Below are positions 16,749-24,993 of a DNA stretch of 64,000 bases, in pieces. Position numbers and translations under genes: made by a program. How positions within the stretch are numbered: the stretch's first letter is position 1; each line of letters begins with the position of its first letter. A model generated the notes under the pieces. It worked only from the letters and a program-made list of their open reading frames with translations, was not told the origin of the DNA and made no database searches. The stretch is from an uncultured Pseudomonadota bacterium (GTDB lineage: Bacteria > Pseudomonadota > Alphaproteobacteria > Acetobacterales > Acetobacteraceae). The DNA is taken from assembly GCA_963791885.1 (NCBI GenBank), contig CAWBUL010000005.1, positions 1,942,356 through 2,006,355 of the forward strand, given 5' to 3'.

Positions 16749-17834
16749 CTAAGCCGGTGCTCCGCGCGGCAAGGCTCGTTGGCCCCAGCGCTGGCCCGGT
16801 ATCTCGACGTGAACGTGAAGGATCCAGGCGATCAGCATCGGCACGGCGATGGCGAGTGGCACCCAGAGCGCGGTGAACAGGATCGGCTGGCCAGGGAATA
16901 GCGCCGAAAGGGCGGTGCCGACGACCTTCTGCGCGGGCTCGTTCACCAGATAGACCGGGTAGGAGATGGCGCCGAGCCAGAGCAGCGGGCGGGACCGCAG
17001 TACAGGCGCCAGCGGTCCACCGTGACGCTCGGACGCGAGCGCGAGGGTCCAGACGAGCGGGGCGGCGAGCTTGGTGGGACCGGCCTCAGCCCAGCACAGG
17101 GCAAGTACGGCGAGCAGGACGGCGGCGTAGAGGCGGGCCGTGGTTTGACCCGGTTTTTGGTCGAGTTCGGCGGCCGCAAGGCCGAGGGCAAAGTATTGTG
17201 CCTTGTTTGGGAGGAAGGCGCGGCTGAACTCCCACTCGGGCGAGGCGAACGAGGACCATGCAATGGCGGCGACGGCCACAGCGAGAAGCATGAGCATGCC
17301 ATAGCGAAGGGAGTGGTTGCGATACGCCAGCACTGCCACGAGGGCGTAGAACTGCCACTCGGTGCTGTGGCTCCAGGCGGCGCCGAGGAAGCTGACCCAG
17401 GCGTTCGGCAACACGACATCGGGGAACAGGCCGTGCGTCATCGTCAGATGGGCGGCGATCTCCGGCGCCCAGTGCGAGGGCCAATCCTCTGACCAGATGG
17501 TACGGGCGGTGCTGTCGAGGCCGATCCACGGCATGCGATCGAAGCCTCGGCCGAGCGGCTGGATGGCGACTGCGATGGGGAAGACCACGAAGAAGACGGG
17601 AAGCAGGCGCGCGGCACGGGCGAGCAGGAACGGGGCGGGCTGGTTGTCGAAGCGGGTGAGGGAGCGGGCGATGACCATGCCGCTGAGGATAAAGAAGACA
17701 TCCACCGCGGCTTCGCCGTGGGAGAAGGGGCGGGTGAGCCAGAGCGGAAGCGCGCCGAAGGGAGCCATGTGCGAGAGCAACACATAGGTGGCGAGCACGC
17801 CCCGCAGCCCGTCGAGACACGCCAAGCGTCTCAC
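16749..17834 (-). CDS. Acyltransferase family 3 (OafA-like) membrane protein
   Basis: 361 aa, polytopic. The N-terminus LDGLRGVLATYVLLSH is typical of Acyl_transf_3. Confidence 0.7.
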   Translation of the reverse strand: MRRLACLDGLRGVLATYVLLSHMAPFGALPLWLTRPFSHGEAAVDVFFILSGMVIARSLTRFDNQPAPFLLARAARLLPVFFVVFPIAVAIQPLGRGFDRMPWIGLDSTARTIWSEDWPSHWAPEIAAHLTMTHGLFPDVVLPNAWVSFLGAAWSHSTEWQFYALVAVLAYRNHSLRYGMLMLLAVAVAAIAWSSFASPEWEFSRAFLPNKAQYFALGLAAAELDQKPGQTTARLYAAVLLAVLALCWAEAGPTKLAAPLVWTLALASERHGGPLAPVLRSRPLLWLGAISYPVYLVNEPAQKVVGTALSALFPGQPILFTALWVPLAIAVPMLIAWILHVHVEIPGQRWGQRALPRGAPA

Positions 17835-19552: not shown

Positions 19553-19688
19553 CTGCTTGCTTTGCTGTCAGCAGCCCCTGGCTAAGGCTTGTCCCCCTCG
19601 CGTCGGCTGCGATAGCTCGCGATGACCTTGCGCACTGCGCGCCATCTGCGTTGATGATATTATGGGGACGTCCGACCGAGGAGCATCA

Positions 19689-21095
19689 ATGCCTGACCTG
19701 ACCGACGCCATTGCCCGCATCGTTGGACCAACCGGCATCCTCACCGGAGCGGATGCAGAGCCCTATTGCGAGGACTGGCGCAAGCTGTACCACGGTCGCA
19801 CGCAAGCGGTCGTGCGTCCCGCGAATACGGAACAGGTTGCCGATGTGGTGCGCCTGTGCGCGGAGACCGACACGCCGGTGGTGCCGCAGGGCGGCAATAC
19901 GTCGATGGTCGGCGGTGCGACCCCCGACGAAACGGGCCGGGCGATCATTCTGAGCCTGACGCGCATGAACCGGGTGCGCGCGATCGACCCGACTGACCTC
20001 ACCATCACGCTGGATGCCGGCATCACGCTGAAAGCCGCGCAAATGGCTGCCGCCGAGGCGGGTTGCCTGCTCCCGCTGTCGATTTCATCCGAAGGCTCGG
20101 CAGAGATCGGCGGGATTTTGGCGACCAATGCCGGCGGCAACAACACCGTACGCTACGGCAATGCGCGCGATCTGCTGTTGGGGCTGGAGGTGGTGCTGCC
20201 GGACGGCGCGGTATGGAACGGGCTGCGGCGGCTGCGCAAGGACAACACCGGTTACTGCCTCCGGCAGATCTTCGCCGGATCGGAAGGAACGTTGGGCGTC
20301 ATCACGGCCGCAGTGCTGAAACTGGCGCCGCGGCTGCGTGAAACAGTGGTCGCGTTCTGCTCGGTGCGCGGGCCGGAGGATGCGCTTGCTCTGTTCTCGC
20401 GCTTCCAGGCCCACGATCCGGGTGCGATCCAGGCGTTCGAATACATGTCGGGCCTGGGCACCTCGTTCGTGCTGCGCTACATCCCGGGCGCGGTGCTGCC
20501 GGTGTCGGAGCCTGCGCCGGGTTATGTGCTGATCGAACTGGCGACGCCGCGGGAAGGGGCGGGACTGCGTGCCTCCATGGAGGAGGTGCTGGGGGCGGCG
20601 CTGGAAGCGGGGGTGATCGCGGACGCGGCGATCGCGGAGAGCGAGGCACAGCGCGCGGGGATTTGGCGGCTGCGCGAGGAGCATTCCGAGGCGCAGAAGC
20701 GCGAGGGTGCCTCGATCAAGAACGACGTATCCGTGCCGGTCTCGAAAGTGCCGGACTTCATCCGCGAGGCGACGGCGGCGTGCGAGCAGCTGATGCCGGG
20801 TGTCCGCGTCGTGCCGTTCGGTCATATCGGGGACGGTAACATTCACTTCAACCTGGAACAGCCGGAGGGGGTGAATGCGTCCACCTTCCTGGCACAGGAC
20901 CATGCGGTGATGGACACGGTGAACGAGGTTGTGCGTCGGTTTGGCGGCAGTTTTTCGGCGGAACACGGCGTAGGGCGGTTGAAACCGTATCTGATGCCGG
21001 ATTGGCGCGGCGGCGTGGAACTCGATCTGATGCGGCGGTTGAAGGCGGCATTCGATCCACGCGGAATCATGAACCCAGGGAAGGTGCTTCCCTGA
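19689..21095 (+). CDS. FAD-linked oxidase (GlcD / D-2-hydroxyacid dehydrogenase family)
   Basis: The start MPDLTDAIARIVG at 19689 gives 468 aa. It contains a PCMH-type FAD-binding region (VVRPANTEQVADVVRLCAETDTPVVPQGGNTSMVGGA) and the C-terminal sequence GSFSAEHGVGRLK. Confidence 0.85.
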   Translation: MPDLTDAIARIVGPTGILTGADAEPYCEDWRKLYHGRTQAVVRPANTEQVADVVRLCAETDTPVVPQGGNTSMVGGATPDETGRAIILSLTRMNRVRAIDPTDLTITLDAGITLKAAQMAAAEAGCLLPLSISSEGSAEIGGILATNAGGNNTVRYGNARDLLLGLEVVLPDGAVWNGLRRLRKDNTGYCLRQIFAGSEGTLGVITAAVLKLAPRLRETVVAFCSVRGPEDALALFSRFQAHDPGAIQAFEYMSGLGTSFVLRYIPGAVLPVSEPAPGYVLIELATPREGAGLRASMEEVLGAALEAGVIADAAIAESEAQRAGIWRLREEHSEAQKREGASIKNDVSVPVSKVPDFIREATAACEQLMPGVRVVPFGHIGDGNIHFNLEQPEGVNASTFLAQDHAVMDTVNEVVRRFGGSFSAEHGVGRLKPYLMPDWRGGVELDLMRRLKAAFDPRGIMNPGKVLP

Positions 21096-21118: not shown

Positions 21119-22213
21119 ATGTCTTCCGATCGAACGGGCGGGGGCGGTGTGGCGGCATATCTGAACCGGATCGGCACCGCGGTGCCGCGCCATGAAGTGC
21201 ATGGTGCGAGCGTTGCCTTTGCCCGCACCCTGTTTCCCGACGAGCGGGAGCAATCGATCTTCGATCGTATGGTTGCGGGGGCCGACATCGCGCGCCGCTA
21301 CTCGGTGCTGGCAGCGCATCCACATCCCGGGTCCGACGACTACGACCAGGAGGGATTCTATCAGCGCGCCGCGTTTCCTTCGACCGGCACGCGGATGGCG
21401 CGGTACCAATTTGAAGCGCGCGGCTTGGCACAGGCGGCCATCGAGGCGCTCGATCTGGGGCGCGACCGTGATCGGGTGACGCATCTGATCGTGGCCAGTT
21501 GCACCGGATTCTCCGCGCCGGGCCTCGATTTCCACATGATGCGCGATGCCGGGCTGCCGGAGACCGTGGAGCGAACCATCGTCGGTTTCATGGGCTGCTT
21601 TGCCGCGGTCAACGCGCTGAAGCTGGCGCGCCACATCGTCCGTTCGGAGCCGCATGCGCTGGTGCTGGTGGTGAATGTCGAACTCTGCAGCCTGCATTTG
21701 CAGGAACAGTTCGAATTGCCGAAGATCATGAGCTTTCTGCTGTTCGCGGACGGGGCCTCGGCGGCGTTGGTTTCGTCCGAAAGGGAGGGGTTGGCGCTTG
21801 ACGGATTCCGCGCAACCGTCGTTCCCGACAGTGAGCCCCTGATCACCTGGCATATTCGCGACCAGGGTTTTGATATGTCGCTGTCCGGTCAGGTACCGAA
21901 CCGGATCCGGCAATTCCTGCGCGAGCATGGGATGGGGTTTTTGGGGAACGGGGCGGACGATCCGGAGACGGCCTGGGCAGTGCATGCGGGTGGCCGGTCG
22001 ATCCTGGATGCCGTGCAGCAGGGGCTGGCTCTTGCGCCGGAGGCACTGCGGCATTCGCGCGCGGTGCTGCGAGAGTTCGGCAACATGTCCTCGGCCACGT
22101 TGATGTTCGTGCTGGCGAGGATCCTGCGAGAGCGGCACGTTGGGCGGCCAGGCATCGCGATGGCGTTCGGACCGGGGCTGACGGTGGAAAGTTTCGCATT
22201 CCATCATGCCTGA
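21119..22213 (+). CDS. Type III polyketide synthase (chalcone/stilbene synthase family)
   Basis: 364 aa. The catalytic triad contexts are LIVASCTGFSAPGLD (Cys), AVHAGGRSILD (His) and EFGNMSSATLMFVL (Asn). The start could alternatively be a GTG about 10 codons downstream. Confidence 0.85.
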   Translation: MSSDRTGGGGVAAYLNRIGTAVPRHEVHGASVAFARTLFPDEREQSIFDRMVAGADIARRYSVLAAHPHPGSDDYDQEGFYQRAAFPSTGTRMARYQFEARGLAQAAIEALDLGRDRDRVTHLIVASCTGFSAPGLDFHMMRDAGLPETVERTIVGFMGCFAAVNALKLARHIVRSEPHALVLVVNVELCSLHLQEQFELPKIMSFLLFADGASAALVSSEREGLALDGFRATVVPDSEPLITWHIRDQGFDMSLSGQVPNRIRQFLREHGMGFLGNGADDPETAWAVHAGGRSILDAVQQGLALAPEALRHSRAVLREFGNMSSATLMFVLARILRERHVGRPGIAMAFGPGLTVESFAFHHA

Positions 22214-22898
22214 ACGATTGCGGACGCGCAGCACGACGCCGGAGCAGATGGACACGGCGTGTGCGGATTTCGCCGATTACGCGCGCTGCCTGCGCGACCT
22301 GACACGCGTCAACATGGTTACGCGCACGCACGCACCGGTGCTGGCGTGGCTGCGGCGACAAGCGCCAGCGGATGGTGCATTCAGCCTGTGCGACATCGGG
22401 TGTGGTGAAGGCGATCTGCTGCGGGCGATCGGGCGCCGCTTTCCGGGTGCTCGGCTGACGGGCGTGGATCGGCACCCATGGAGCATTCGCGCGGCGCGGG
22501 AAGCGACACCGGCCTCGGCGCAGATTGAGTACGTCGAGGCGGACCTCTTTTCGCTGACGGGCCGCGACTGGGATTTCATCGTGAGTTCGCAATTCGCGCA
22601 TCACCTGACGGACGACGAGCTGGTGCGCTTCATCCAGTGGCAGGAAGCGCATGCGGTGCGGGGCTGGTTCATCGCGGACCTGCACCGGCATTGGATGTCG
22701 TATTACGGATTTCCACTGCTGGCGCGGGCGATGCGCTGGCACCGGCTGGTGCGGGAGGACGGGGCGGTCTCGATCGCACGGGCATTTCGGGCGAAGGAGT
22801 TGCGGGGCGTGCTGGCGCGCGCAGGCGCGTCCGGTGCGCGGGTGCGGTGGCACGTGCCGTTCCGCCTGTGCGTATCGCGGCAATGCGCCCGGTCATAG
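22206..22898 (+). CDS. Class I SAM-dependent methyltransferase
   Basis: 230 aa with an 8-nt overlap with the PKS stop. Motif I is LCDIGCGEGDL, and there is an acidic loop VDRH. Confidence 0.7.
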   Translation: MPERLRTRSTTPEQMDTACADFADYARCLRDLTRVNMVTRTHAPVLAWLRRQAPADGAFSLCDIGCGEGDLLRAIGRRFPGARLTGVDRHPWSIRAAREATPASAQIEYVEADLFSLTGRDWDFIVSSQFAHHLTDDELVRFIQWQEAHAVRGWFIADLHRHWMSYYGFPLLARAMRWHRLVREDGAVSIARAFRAKELRGVLARAGASGARVRWHVPFRLCVSRQCARS

Positions 22899-23926
22899 TC
22901 GGCGGCGGTCCAGCGGGGTCCGCGGCGGCGATCGTGCTGGCGCAAGCGGGGGCCGCGCCGCTGGTTCTGGAGCGCTCGACCGGGCCACATGACAAAGTGT
23001 GCGGCGACTTCCTCAGCGGCGAGGCCGGCGCGATGCTGGATCGGCTGGGCGTCGGGCCGGACCGGTTGGGTGCCGTGCCGGTAAAATGGGTGCGGCTCGT
23101 GCGGGGAGGGCAGTCGGTCACCGCGCCGCTGCCCTTTCCTGCGTGGAGCGTGTCGCGACGGGTCCTCGACGAGGCGCTGCTGCAGCGTGCGGCGGCGTGC
23201 GGGGCCGAGGTGGTTCGTGGTGAAACGATCCGCGCGGTGCAGTCGGATGGCACGATCGAGCGCGCTGTCGGCGGAGTGATCAGGGGCACTGTCTTTCTCG
23301 CAACGGGCAAGCATGACCTGCGCGGAAGCGCTCGGCCGCGCGACCGGCGGATGGTGGGGTTCAAGACCTATGTGCGGCTTGCGCAGGCGCAGTTCGACGC
23401 GCTGGCCGGCGGCGTGGAGATCGTGCTGCTGCCCGGTGGATATGCCGGGCTGCAGAACGTGGAGGACGGGCGGACGGTGCTGTGCTGGCTGGCGCGCGGC
23501 GGGGATGCACGGGCGTGCCTGGCGCATCCGCACGTGGCGGCCCGGCTGGAGGGTGCGAGTGCGATGCCGGACCGGCTGCTGTCGGTTGCCGGCATGCCGT
23601 ACGGGTTTCTCGCGCCCCCGGCGGATTTCTTCCGGCTCGGGGATCAGGCGGCGGTGATTCCATCCTTTGCCGGCGCGGGCGTGGCAATTGCGCTGATCTC
23701 TGGCGCAGCTGCGGCCGAAGGGTATTTGCGCGGCGACGATCCAGCAGTGTTCCAGCGTTCGTGCGGGCAGCGTATGCGCGGGCCGGTGAAGCGCGCCACG
23801 TTGCTGCATCGGGCTCTGTCGTCCGGCGGCTTCAAAGGCGCAACGTTCGAAGTTTGCGCGCTATGGCCCGGCGCGATGACGCTCGCGGCGCGGGCGACGC
23901 GCGTAGGTGAGGCCGCGTCCTATTGA
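22883..23926 (+). CDS. FAD-dependent oxidoreductase (geranylgeranyl reductase / aromatic hydroxylase family)
   Basis: The internal ATG at 22883 overlaps the methyltransferase stop by 16 nt. MRPVIVGGGPAGSAAAIVLAQAGAAPLVLER is a Rossmann GxGxxG fold, and GDQAAVIPSFAGAGVAIAL is present. Confidence 0.75.
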   Translation: MRPVIVGGGPAGSAAAIVLAQAGAAPLVLERSTGPHDKVCGDFLSGEAGAMLDRLGVGPDRLGAVPVKWVRLVRGGQSVTAPLPFPAWSVSRRVLDEALLQRAAACGAEVVRGETIRAVQSDGTIERAVGGVIRGTVFLATGKHDLRGSARPRDRRMVGFKTYVRLAQAQFDALAGGVEIVLLPGGYAGLQNVEDGRTVLCWLARGGDARACLAHPHVAARLEGASAMPDRLLSVAGMPYGFLAPPADFFRLGDQAAVIPSFAGAGVAIALISGAAAAEGYLRGDDPAVFQRSCGQRMRGPVKRATLLHRALSSGGFKGATFEVCALWPGAMTLAARATRVGEAASY

Positions 23927-24993
23927 GGGCGCAAATTCATCACTGGAGGCGTTTTCACCGACGGTGCCACTGATGTGTCCTGTTCCTCGAGCACGGGGCG
24001 AGACAGCGCGGCCTTGGGCGCTAGCCACTTGCGCAGGCGCAGGCTCGGTTTTTCGACAAAATGCCAGGAGAGGGCGGCAATGCCGACGCTCAGCGGCCAG
24101 CCGATCGCCAAATTGATCCACCAGACCCGATAGGCCGGCGCGAGAGTCATGATGGCCTGCTGTAGCACGAAAGAGTAGAGGTAGATGCCGTACGAGTAGT
24201 CACCCGACATCAGAACCGGGATGCGCGGCAGCCTGACCGTCCCGAGATACGTGACGAAATAAGTCGCGCTGACCACGCCGAGGATGAAGGCGAGATGTGC
24301 AAACCAGAAGGAGACGGCGATGTACAGGATGATGGATAGTACGAACAGGCTGGGGCGCACCGGAATGCGGTCGCGCCAGAGATAGAACACTTGTCCGCAC
24401 AGGAAGCAGAGGACCAGCGACGCTCCGGACTGGAGCGCAACCCCAGCGGGGATCGTGTGGCGGAACAGGGTGGCGGTCTCGAGCACGACGCCGATGATTA
24501 GGAGACCGAGCACGATCCGCGGACGAGTGGCGATGCCCAGGATCATCAGCACAGCCATCAGTAGGTAGCAGTGGAGTTCCTGAGGCACGGTCCACAACTG
24601 ACCATTCACGATCCCGGACAGAGGGTTGCTCAGGAAGACGCCGGGCAGATGAAAGTGAATCCAGCCGACGACGTTGAGGAAATACACAGCGAATTGGGGG
24701 GCCCGATAATAGTCATGCAGCGACAGTGATGTGACGATAGGCCCGAGGATCAATGCGGATACGGTGATTTCCACACACAGGGCAGGCAGAATCCGAAGCG
24801 CGCGGAAGGCGATAAAGGTACGCACGCTGCGGACGCGGACGGCACTGCCGGCGACGAGGAAGCCGGAGAGGGCGAAGAAGGCCGGCACGATGATAAGAAT
24901 CGTGGGCCCGAACAGGCCCGACTGCATCTGCCGCCCGATGGTGAGCTGGAATGAGTGGAAGACGACCACAGCCGAGGCGAGCGCAAGGCGCAT
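23920..24993 (-). CDS. Acyltransferase family 3 membrane protein (second copy of the family in the window)
   Basis: 357 aa, about 10 TM helices. The N-terminus is RLALASAVVVFHS. Confidence 0.65.
   Translation of the reverse strand: MRLALASAVVVFHSFQLTIGRQMQSGLFGPTILIIVPAFFALSGFLVAGSAVRVRSVRTFIAFRALRILPALCVEITVSALILGPIVTSLSLHDYYRAPQFAVYFLNVVGWIHFHLPGVFLSNPLSGIVNGQLWTVPQELHCYLLMAVLMILGIATRPRIVLGLLIIGVVLETATLFRHTIPAGVALQSGASLVLCFLCGQVFYLWRDRIPVRPSLFVLSIILYIAVSFWFAHLAFILGVVSATYFVTYLGTVRLPRIPVLMSGDYSYGIYLYSFVLQQAIMTLAPAYRVWWINLAIGWPLSVGIAALSWHFVEKPSLRLRKWLAPKAALSRPVLEEQDTSVAPSVKTPPVMNLRPQ

Follow-up and report, generated by a model that had tools for sequence, protein, structure and literature searches.

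The question raised by this locus is whether three overlapping genes, coding for a type III polyketide synthase (PKS), a methyltransferase (MT) and a flavoprotein, belong to one pathway, and whether this pathway is of the kind known from the srsABC operon of Streptomyces griseus, as the original prediction had proposed. All positions refer to the window, which is the whole stretch of 64,000 nucleotides that was analysed.

A coupled operon and its conservation

The three open reading frames were confirmed on the forward strand at the predicted positions, with overlaps of 8 nt and 16 nt (Table 1). The PKS ends with F-A-F-H-H-A-TGA, its stop codon lying at 22211-22213, and the ATG of the MT is located at 22206. 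At the second junction, the MT ends with a TAG at 22896-22898 and the ATG of the flavoprotein is found at 22883. These overlaps of stop and start codons suggest a translational coupling, which would hold the three proteins in proportion. The start of the PKS is ambiguous (ATG at 21119, or GTG at 21149, which lies in frame as codon 11), since the alignments with homologues begin only at residue 13. A scan for promoters and terminators revealed nothing convincing apart from one weak hairpin where the preceding oxidase gene ends, and the counts were at the level of shuffled sequences.

Table 1. Positions of the three genes and their overlaps in the window
Feature	Position	Strand	Description
Type III PKS gene	21119..22213	+	364 aa; predicted long-chain alkylresorcinol synthase
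Class I SAM-dependent methyltransferase (MT) gene	22206..22898	+	230 aa; PKS-associated family related to NF004851/PRK06202
FAD flavoprotein gene	22883..23926	+	347 aa; PHBH fold; probable ring hydroxylase
Overlap of PKS stop and MT start, 8 nt	22206..22213	+	ATGCCTGA; read directly from sequence
Overlap of MT 3' end and flavoprotein start, 16 nt	22883..22898	+	read directly from sequence

Among 59 informative loci whose PKS is at least 48% identical, mostly from Alphaproteobacteria, 48 show the order PKS-MT-flavoprotein. Since the same three genes recur in the same order, the arrangement is not a matter of chance. In most of the related loci the junctions overlap or abut, the start/stop overlaps comprising mostly 4 to 16 nt, and an identical junction of -16 between MT and flavoprotein was observed in 11 of them. 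The PKS is present in 65 of 151 sampled genomes of the host family (about 43%), and it is the sole type III PKS of the 7.6-Mb genome. A horizontal-transfer island was rejected, since the PKS tree largely follows taxonomy and no compositional signal was observed (GC of 0.65-0.69 compared to a window mean of about 0.64). Altogether, the three genes form a real, tightly coupled and self-contained operon, which is common in Alphaproteobacteria.

Two flanking genes had been named as possible contributors, an FAD-linked oxidase (19662-21095), whose stop lies 23 nt upstream of the PKS, and a convergent gene of the Acyl_transf_3 family (23920-24993). This part of the original prediction was not borne out, as neither gene is conserved with the triad among 80 loci. 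The oxidase is GlcD-like (TIGR00387, 248 bits, below the cut-off). It was rejected as a cluster member because its synteny, with spacings between 75 bp and over 3 kb, is confined to close Acetobacteraceae relatives, while no triad of any other taxon among the 80 loci has it as a neighbour. The acyltransferase was rejected as well, with an occurrence of 0 in 80 loci. Among the neighbouring genes, no dedicated system for a starter unit (ligase, ACP, KS) was detected. They code for an aldose epimerase, an SDR, a class IV aminotransferase, an HTH protein, a TIM-barrel protein, an HpcH aldolase and an ABC transporter, i.e. unrelated functions, and include no unusual accessory genes.

Product type of the polyketide synthase

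The PKS was assigned by its Pfam matches to Chal_sti_synt_C (86.5 bits) and Chal_sti_synt_N (65.9 bits), both compared to a cut-off of 27. Its relatives in the PDB scored between 110 and 138 bits, the best being PKS1 of Ectocarpus (4b0n). The intact Cys/His/Asn triad that had been claimed for this enzyme was recovered as C160/H289/N322. These residues align with the catalytic positions in CHS-type enzymes of known structure, and none of the 80 homologues deviates from them.

For the type of product, the residue W244 is of special importance. It is kept in 79 of 80 homologues and aligns with G256 of CHS and L261 of 2-PS. In published alignments, the switch between resorcinol and pyrone formation is represented by W281 in ArsB, G284 in ArsC and L266 in PKS18 (PMC6274091, PMC7064976), and the equivalence of W244 and ArsB W281 rests on these published alignments and not on a direct one. 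A second residue, M253, is conserved in all 80 homologues and lies nine residues past W244, a spacing equal to that of G284 and M293 in ArsC. Furthermore, T129, C190 and L194, which were mapped by motif offset and not by structural superposition, would occupy the positions of the long-chain acyl tunnel, with the same Cys+4 spacing. The corresponding residues are T144/C205/A209 in PKS18 and T137/C198/L202 in CepA. Tunnel residues of the Thr/Cys/Leu kind have been described for CepA, BpsA and PKS18 (PMC7064976). Based on these residues, the PKS is predicted to be of the resorcinol type and to act as a long-chain alkylresorcinol synthase. The original prediction had been made dependent on the PKS clade and on the tailoring genes as conserved neighbours, and it holds in this respect because the PKS contains the resorcinol-determining Trp and the MT and flavoprotein genes accompany it in the 48 loci mentioned above.

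The only characterised type III PKSs of Alphaproteobacteria that we found are RpsA, which uses a methylmalonyl extender, and RePKS, a heptaketide pyrone synthase (PMC6274091), so that the choice of starter and extender by the PKS is uncertain. An unlikely alternative would be that it forms alkylpyrones, or methyl-branched products derived from methylmalonyl-CoA, instead of alkylresorcinols, and that a pyrone or resorcylic acid scaffold is then tailored. RpsA of Rhodospirillum centenum is in line with this, since this alphaproteobacterial enzyme makes alkyldimethylpyrones and resorcylic acids (PMC6274091). Resorcinol synthases often release pyrones as well, which is common for resorcinol-type enzymes in vitro (PMC7064976), and some close homologues of the PKS carry the JGI label 'alpha-pyrone synthase', although these labels are automatic. 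However, the nearly invariant Trp244, together with Met253, argues against a pyrone synthase, as do the related operon-borne PKSs of planctomycetes and cyanobacteria, which yield alkylresorcinols (PMC10896814, PMC6836626).

The methyltransferase and the flavoprotein

The second gene had been described as a class I SAM methyltransferase, in agreement with both its Pfam matches and its predicted fold. Only class I Rossmann-type families were matched (Methyltransf_25/11/12/23, with 49 bits for Methyltransf_25), and the AF2 model (pLDDT of 96.5) has the fold of a soluble class I enzyme, for which MM_2633 and the aromatic C-methyltransferases NovO and CouO are the nearest folds. Compared to NF004851, the MT scored 121 bits over residues 6-226, which is below the cut-off of 243. 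The MT of an operon from Paludisphaera shares 33% identity with it over 232 aa, and the MTs from Deinococcus and Cellulomonadaceae share 31% each. The residues R8, E13, D16, N36, G67, D88, H132, H133, R161 and D185 are invariant.

The assignment of the flavoprotein is more complex. Its Pfam match is restricted to the N-terminal FAD_binding_3/GxGxxG region (33.6 bits). The GxGxxG and GD motifs are present, while the DG motif, a feature of NAD(P)H-dependent group A hydroxylases, is absent and replaced by ATGKHDL. The best NCBIfam match was TIGR02032 (GG-red-SF) with 74 bits over residues 4-124 only, compared to a cut-off of 158.8, and the QhpG profile NF049967 gave 36.7 bits. For the AF2 model (pLDDT of 94), Foldseek returned ChlB4, Bmp2, PltA, FasV and PltM as best matches, followed by group A monooxygenases. 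A profile search of the PDB led to Mpy16, CmlS, ChlB4 and PltA, followed by DGGR (3oz2), QhpG (7ctq) and FixC. The invariant residues are G7, G9, G12, C40, G41, R92, D96, G142, G186, Y187, G189, G253 and G266. Accordingly, the flavoprotein belongs to the branch of geranylgeranyl reductases (GGRs), halogenases and QhpG-like enzymes and not to the UbiH-like branch. The GxGxxG flavoprotein of the original prediction is thus retained, but it is not a hydroxylase of the UbiH/PHBH type.

Within this branch, the flavoprotein is a probable ring hydroxylase, and QhpG, which is an aromatic-ring hydroxylase, provides a precedent for this reaction. The planctomycetal co-expression yielded no hydroxylated product and did not assign a role to the FAD oxidoreductase (FDO) (PMC10896814). 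Three features of the flavoprotein itself speak against a hydroxylase, namely the missing DG motif, the invariant Cys in a KxCG motif as in GGRs and the FADH2-dependent halogenases as nearest solved relatives.

In a less probable reading, the flavoprotein would be a reductase that saturates a double bond, for example of an unsaturated alkyl chain or of a polyketide intermediate, or reduces a quinone, and the pathway would end at a methylated alkylresorcinol that has gained no further ring oxygen. TIGR02032 as best NCBIfam match points in this direction, and it reached 116 bits full-length for the planctomycetal homologue, but every score remained below the family cut-off. The same direction is indicated by DGGR (3oz2), which scored 72 bits in the profile search, and by the missing DG motif. 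The invariant Cys40-Gly41 of the flavoprotein is part of a KVCGxF motif, which we take to resemble the KxCGG motif of GGRs, but the Y-x-W-x-F-P strand of the latter is cut down to G-G-Y-A-G-L. Regarding the related operons, the planctomycetal co-expression gave methylation only (PMC10896814), and the steps of HidA and HidB were called 'reduction and methylation' in one cyanobacterial paper (PMC8086630). On the other hand, hierridin B requires a third ring oxygen, and the hid cluster offers no candidate other than HidB for its introduction (PMC6836626). In addition, the slot after the homologous MT is occupied in the examined operons of Deinococcus and Actinobacteria by a genuine UbiH-like hydroxylase, which argues for hydroxylation as the role of this slot.

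A role of the flavoprotein as a cryptic flavin-dependent halogenase of the phenolic ring is very improbable, even though its best structure and profile matches (ChlB4, Bmp2, PltA, PltM, Mpy16, CmlS, CndH) are FADH2-dependent halogenases and no enzyme is assigned to the chlorination step of hierridin C (PMC6836626). The WxWxIP motif is missing, GGYAGL being aligned to GWVWMIP of CmlS, and K68, which aligns with the catalytic Lys of CmlS, varies within the family (K, R, T, N, S, D, H). A halogenase identity was therefore rejected on the basis of motifs.

There is also a small chance that the whole HidB/FDO-type family, with its invariant Cys-Gly, its missing DG motif and its halogenase-like fold, departs from conventional NAD(P)H-dependent hydroxylases and comprises two-component FADH2-dependent ring oxygenases, or catalyses another reaction such as a reduction or ring modification. 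If so, chemistry that has not yet been described would lead to a modified polyketide lipid, quinone-like or otherwise altered, in thousands of such operons from Alphaproteobacteria, Planctomycetota, Cyanobacteria, Verrucomicrobiota and Bacteroidota.

Proposed pathway and comparison with known operons

Taking the probable ring hydroxylase as the third enzyme, it appears likely that the self-contained operon converts an alkylresorcinol by methylation and ring oxygenation into a tailored phenolic lipid. According to its residues, the PKS would load a long-chain fatty acyl thioester that primary metabolism supplies and add three malonyl units, and a C2-C7 aldol ring closure would lead to a 5-alkylresorcinol or an alkylresorcylic acid. 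By homology to the HidA family, the MT would then methylate the ring on oxygen or carbon. O-methylation would follow the manner of HidA, the cyanobacterial enzyme that methylates 5-pentadecylresorcinol in vitro (PMC6836626), while C-methylation has been proposed for the Gimesia enzyme and is hinted at by the fold similar to NovO and CouO. In the third step, the weakest link of the proposal, the flavoprotein would introduce a further ring oxygen, yielding a methoxy- or methyl-alkylhydroquinone that could be oxidised to an alkylbenzoquinone. The product of the operon is probably a methylated and oxygenated phenolic membrane lipid, which most likely resides in the membrane and may serve as a protective or redox lipid, as reported for the products of srs and pkq.

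The roles reported for products of PKS-MT-flavoprotein operons comprise beta-lactam tolerance (srs), alternative respiratory quinones in hypoxia and spores (pkq) and the bioactive hierridins. Since the PKS occurs in about 43% of the sampled family genomes and the triad in most of the informative loci, the product is probably a common, little-studied lipid of soil Alphaproteobacteria. For this locus itself the gain is modest, as it adds one more member to a type of pathway that is already known. Genome mining, however, tends to lump such triads as 'srsABC-like', while at least two unrelated types of MT and two distant types of flavoprotein occupy the same slots.

A comparison with srsABC of S. 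griseus and pkqABC of Mycobacterium smegmatis and Streptomyces sp. MNU77 illustrates this point. The order PKS-MT-flavoprotein is shared (PMC9927152, PMC13730376), as are the Trp of the resorcinol-type PKS and the predicted logic of an alkylresorcinol that is methylated and then hydroxylated to an alkylquinone. In contrast, SrsB is described as a membrane methyltransferase of the ICMT family (PMC13730376, PMC6669644), to which the soluble class I MT is unrelated. SrsC, which was compared by description only, is reported with flavoprotein-hydroxylase motifs, whereas the flavoprotein of this locus lacks the DG motif and is GGR/halogenase/QhpG-like. The label 'SrsABC-like' of the original prediction thus applies to gene order and pathway logic, but not to the MT and probably not to the flavoprotein. 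To a Streptomyces homologue, the PKS is only about 35% identical, and a homologue on a Streptomyces plasmid (L085) was rejected as an srs-type triad because it consists of a PKS and an MMPL protein.

The operons of Deinococcus radiodurans, Microbacterium and Cellulomonadaceae share the gene order, the overlaps and the MT family, the Deinococcus MT reaching 334 bits on NF004851. Their third gene, however, codes for a full-length FAD_binding_3 monooxygenase of the UbiH/PHBH type (129-169 bits compared to 33.6 bits here), and BLAST gave no significant match between these third genes and the flavoprotein. ArsB and ArsC of Azotobacter vinelandii are likewise type III PKSs for long-chain phenolic lipids, but the ars operon relies on a type I fatty acid synthase of its own (ArsA/ArsD) and contains neither an MT nor a flavoprotein. 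Homologues from Roseomonas are only about 29% identical to ArsC (PMC8776678).

The closest resemblance was found to the hid-type operons (hidABC/hidCAB and the planctomycetal MT-FDO-PKS), which comprise the same set of a type III PKS, a soluble class I MT and an FAD oxidoreductase (PMC6836626, PMC8086630, PMC10896814); the planctomycetal type has been linked to hidABC and to alkylresorcinols. This likeness was tested by sequence with the operon of Paludisphaera borealis as planctomycetal proxy, while HidA/B/C, Gimesia and Rhodopirellula were compared by description. The P. borealis PKS is 39.5% identical, and its MT, aligned over its full length as described above, scored 232 bits on NF004851 compared to 121 bits here, both matches being full length and the sequences divergent. 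Its FDO showed 29% identity to the flavoprotein over the full length and 42% over the first 110 aa, matches the TIGR02032 and QhpG profiles as well, and shares the motifs KVCG, GGY-G and GD-x-x-x-I-x-P-x-x-G-x-G. Pentadecyl- and heptadecyl-resorcinols are the products of the PKSs from such planctomycetal operons, and a single methyl group was gained when MT and FDO were co-expressed (PMC10896814). One of the two arrangements reported for cyanobacteria is PKS-MT-OR, as observed here, whereas the classic hidABC (MT-OR-PKS) differs. Although hid-type hosts are cyanobacteria and planctomycetes, the operon resembles their version more than srsABC of Streptomyces and would represent an alphaproteobacterial member of the hierridin type.

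Gene organization and neighbourhood

As originally predicted, three overlapping open reading frames encode a type III polyketide synthase (PKS), a class I methyltransferase (MT) and a GxGxxG flavoprotein, and the domain assignments agree. The PKS and MT genes overlap by 8 nt (MT ATG at 22206, PKS end CAT CAT GCC TGA), the MT and flavoprotein genes by 16 nt (flavoprotein ATG at 22883, within the MT end CGG CAA TGC GCC CGG TCA TAG). These stop/start overlaps suggest translational coupling. Since the alignments of homologues begin only at residue 13, the PKS may start at ATG 21119 or, ten codons further on, at an in-frame GTG. It is the only type III PKS in the host genome (7.6 Mb, 12 contigs).

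Features of the PKS operon and its surroundings (window coordinates)
Feature	Position	Strand	Description
Acyl_transf_3 gene	16749-17834	-	membrane acyltransferase
Hairpin	21076-21094		8-bp stem (CAGGGAAGGTGCTTCCCTG)
Type III PKS	21119-22213	+	364 aa; Chal_sti_synt_N/C (Pfam/NCBIfam)
Methyltransferase	22206-22898	+	230 aa; class I methyltransferase domains (Pfam/NCBIfam)
Flavoprotein	22883-23926	+	347 aa; GxGxxG FAD-binding N-terminus (Pfam/NCBIfam)
Acyl_transf_3 gene	23920-24993	-	membrane acyltransferase, convergent

The proposed contribution of the adjacent oxidase and acyltransferase to the cluster was not borne out by synteny. The GlcD-like FAD-linked oxidase, which stops 23 nt upstream of the PKS, accompanies the triad in close relatives only among the related loci examined, and at variable distance. 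The convergent acyltransferase gene, overlapping the flavoprotein stop by 7 nt on the downstream side, is conserved beside the triad in none of the 80 loci examined. As the remaining neighbours have functions unrelated to the triad, the functional unit is therefore considered to comprise the three genes, which lie in an ordinary context without extra genes.

The hairpin overlaps the oxidase stop codon 25 nt before the PKS start; its T tail is weak, and it could separate the oxidase from the PKS operon as a partial terminator or a processing site. Two Acyl_transf_3 genes flank the operon about 6 kb apart, neither of which is kept adjoining the triad in other genomes.

Conservation and distribution

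Scanning one genome per species yielded 242 relatives, from which the 80 loci were examined. The close set (PKS at least 48% identical) comprised 64 loci, 5 of them cut by contig ends, from Acetobacteraceae, Sphingomonadales, Hyphomicrobiales/Rhizobiales, Caulobacterales, Azospirillum, Verrucomicrobiota (one) and Myxococcota (one). The predicted conservation of MT and flavoprotein as PKS neighbours was clearly observable, with the full triad in the same order in 48 of the remaining 59 loci and PKS-MT in 5 more. Overlapping junctions are the rule, with 4 nt the predominant length, and eleven loci share the identical 16-nt MT/flavoprotein overlap. PKS-MT is also kept in remoter loci of Bacteroidota, Spirochaetota and Actinomycetota.

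Individual loci showed deviating arrangements. In four Bacteroidota loci (L066, L071, L073, L080) the flavoprotein homologue does not directly follow PKS-MT; it has 21-25% identity and the same motifs and is located roughly 3 kb upstream. Four alphaproteobacterial loci (L024, L028, L053, L054) carry a PKS of the triad-bearing clade with no MT or flavoprotein detectable after it, which could reflect operon loss or substitution by other tailoring genes. In the closest MAG relative (L002, 6200-7350; PKS 83% identical) the PKS is apparently truncated or frameshifted to a 277-aa ORF, followed by a 243-nt gap and an intact MT and flavoprotein; the gene is then a pseudogene, or the long-read assembly contains an error at this place.

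In the PKS tree, the enzyme falls within a fully supported Acetobacteraceae clade nested in a mostly alphaproteobacterial clade of 62 rows (SH-aLRT 97), a topology that fits mainly vertical descent. An orthologue was present in 65 of 151 sampled genomes of the host family (61 of 143 genera).

PKS residues and predicted product

The catalytic triad C160/H289/N322 is invariant in 80 aligned homologues. W244 (I-T-W-H-I-R-D), kept in 79 of them, aligns with chalcone synthase G256 and 2-pyrone synthase L261 when the PKS is compared with solved enzymes by HMMER. In published alignments this site corresponds to PKS18 L266, ArsC G284 and ArsB W281, and a Trp here turns the enzyme from pyrone to resorcinol formation (PMC6274091, PMC7064976). 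M253, nine residues after the Trp as in the ArsC pair G284/M293, is invariant in the 80 homologues. T129, C190 and L194 correspond to the Thr/Cys/(Ala, Phe, Leu) set by which the long-chain acyl tunnel of PKS18, BpsA and CepA is opened; mapped by motif offset, this correspondence is suggestive. The solved relatives are all roughly equidistant (110-138 bits), and the NCBIfam search reached no equivalog. Taken together, we read the enzyme as a predicted alkylresorcinol synthase acting on long chains, from a clade without a characterised member.

Under the proposed mechanism, the PKS would be loaded with long-chain acyl-CoA or acyl-ACP of endogenous origin and form a 5-alkylresorcinol or alkylresorcylic acid. 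The MT would methylate the ring, and the flavoprotein would add oxygen, giving a hydroquinone/quinone-type lipid.

Tailoring enzymes and comparison with known operons

The AF2 model of the flavoprotein (pLDDT 94, pTM 0.93) shows a PHBH fold. Its top Foldseek matches were the FADH2-dependent halogenases ChlB4, Bmp2, PltA, FasV and PltM, with group A monooxygenases ranking next. When 46 family members were combined into a profile, it matched Mpy16, CmlS, ChlB4 and PltA first, then digeranylgeranylglycerophospholipid reductase, QhpG (a peptidyl-tryptophan dihydroxylase) and FixC. A halogenase function was rejected, since the signatures are missing (GGYAGL where CmlS has GWVWMIP) and the family varies at the position aligned to the catalytic Lys. 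Where NAD(P)H-dependent hydroxylases carry the DG motif, the flavoprotein reads ATGKHDL and lacks it. A Cys-Gly in KVCGxF is invariant, resembling the geranylgeranyl reductase motif. Within this branch, QhpG provides a precedent for aromatic-ring hydroxylation.

The oxidoreductase of the Paludisphaera borealis (Planctomycetota) MT-oxidoreductase-PKS operon has the same motifs and matches TIGR02032 (116 bits) and QhpG. The operons of Deinococcus, Microbacterium and Cellulomonadaceae, in contrast, have in third place a gene for a full-length UbiH-like FAD_binding_3 monooxygenase (129-169 bits), to which the window flavoprotein showed no significant similarity by BLAST. Because these third genes differ, the slot after one MT family is filled by two distant flavoprotein types, which argues for ring oxygenation as its probable role. 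In a planctomycetal co-expression experiment, methylation was the only change seen (PMC10896814).

The label SrsABC-like holds for the order PKS-MT-flavoprotein; it does not hold for the MT, which is soluble and of class I (AF2 model, pLDDT 96.5), in contrast to SrsB, described as an ICMT-type membrane methyltransferase (PMC13730376, PMC6669644). Across the entire MT, NCBIfam NF004851/PRK06202 scores 121 bits, below the model cut-off of 243, compared to 334 bits for the MT of the Deinococcus radiodurans PKS-MT-monooxygenase operon and 232 bits for that of Paludisphaera. Near full-length identities (BLASTP) were 33% to Paludisphaera and 31% each to Deinococcus and Cellulomonadaceae. R8, E13, D16, N36, H132-H133, R161 and D185 are invariant in the PKS-associated MT family. 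Among the nearest folds are NovO and CouO, both aromatic C-methyltransferases (TM ~0.7, 20-22% identity). C-methylation was proposed for the Gimesia enzyme, HidA is an O-methylating enzyme, and at this locus either may occur.

Two further loci extend the comparison. In D. radiodurans (L084, NZ_OV024759.1, 5001-10714), a glycosyltransferase and a phospholipase-D-like gene come after the triad of PKS, class I MT and UbiH-like monooxygenase on the same strand, a hint that the phenolic product of this species may be glycosylated or lipid-linked. In Streptomyces sp. BHT-5-2 (L085, NZ_CP081497.1, 4992-8472), an MMPL-family transporter gene comes directly after a type III PKS that is only distantly related (35% identity), an architecture different from srsABC.

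Earlier genome mining assigned type III PKSs of Roseomonas and relatives a likely role in pyrone or resorcinol synthesis (PMC8776678), and two other type III PKSs of Alphaproteobacteria, RpsA and RePKS, have been studied in vitro (PMC6274091). We found no paper characterising an alphaproteobacterial member of the PKS-MT-flavoprotein triad. Since the operon type is already known from cyanobacteria and planctomycetes, the locus adds a member to a known type. Planctomycetal MT-oxidoreductase-PKS operons, whose PKSs form pentadecyl- and heptadecyl-resorcinol (PMC10896814), are reported as close relatives of the cyanobacterial hierridin cluster hidABC, and recombinant HidA methylated 5-pentadecylresorcinol (PMC6836626). 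The link of the window operon to hid is drawn through the planctomycetal proxy (Paludisphaera) and published statements. In cyanobacteria the order hidA>hidB>hidC occurs as well as hidC>hidA>hidB (PMC8086630), and the gene order in the window equals the latter arrangement.
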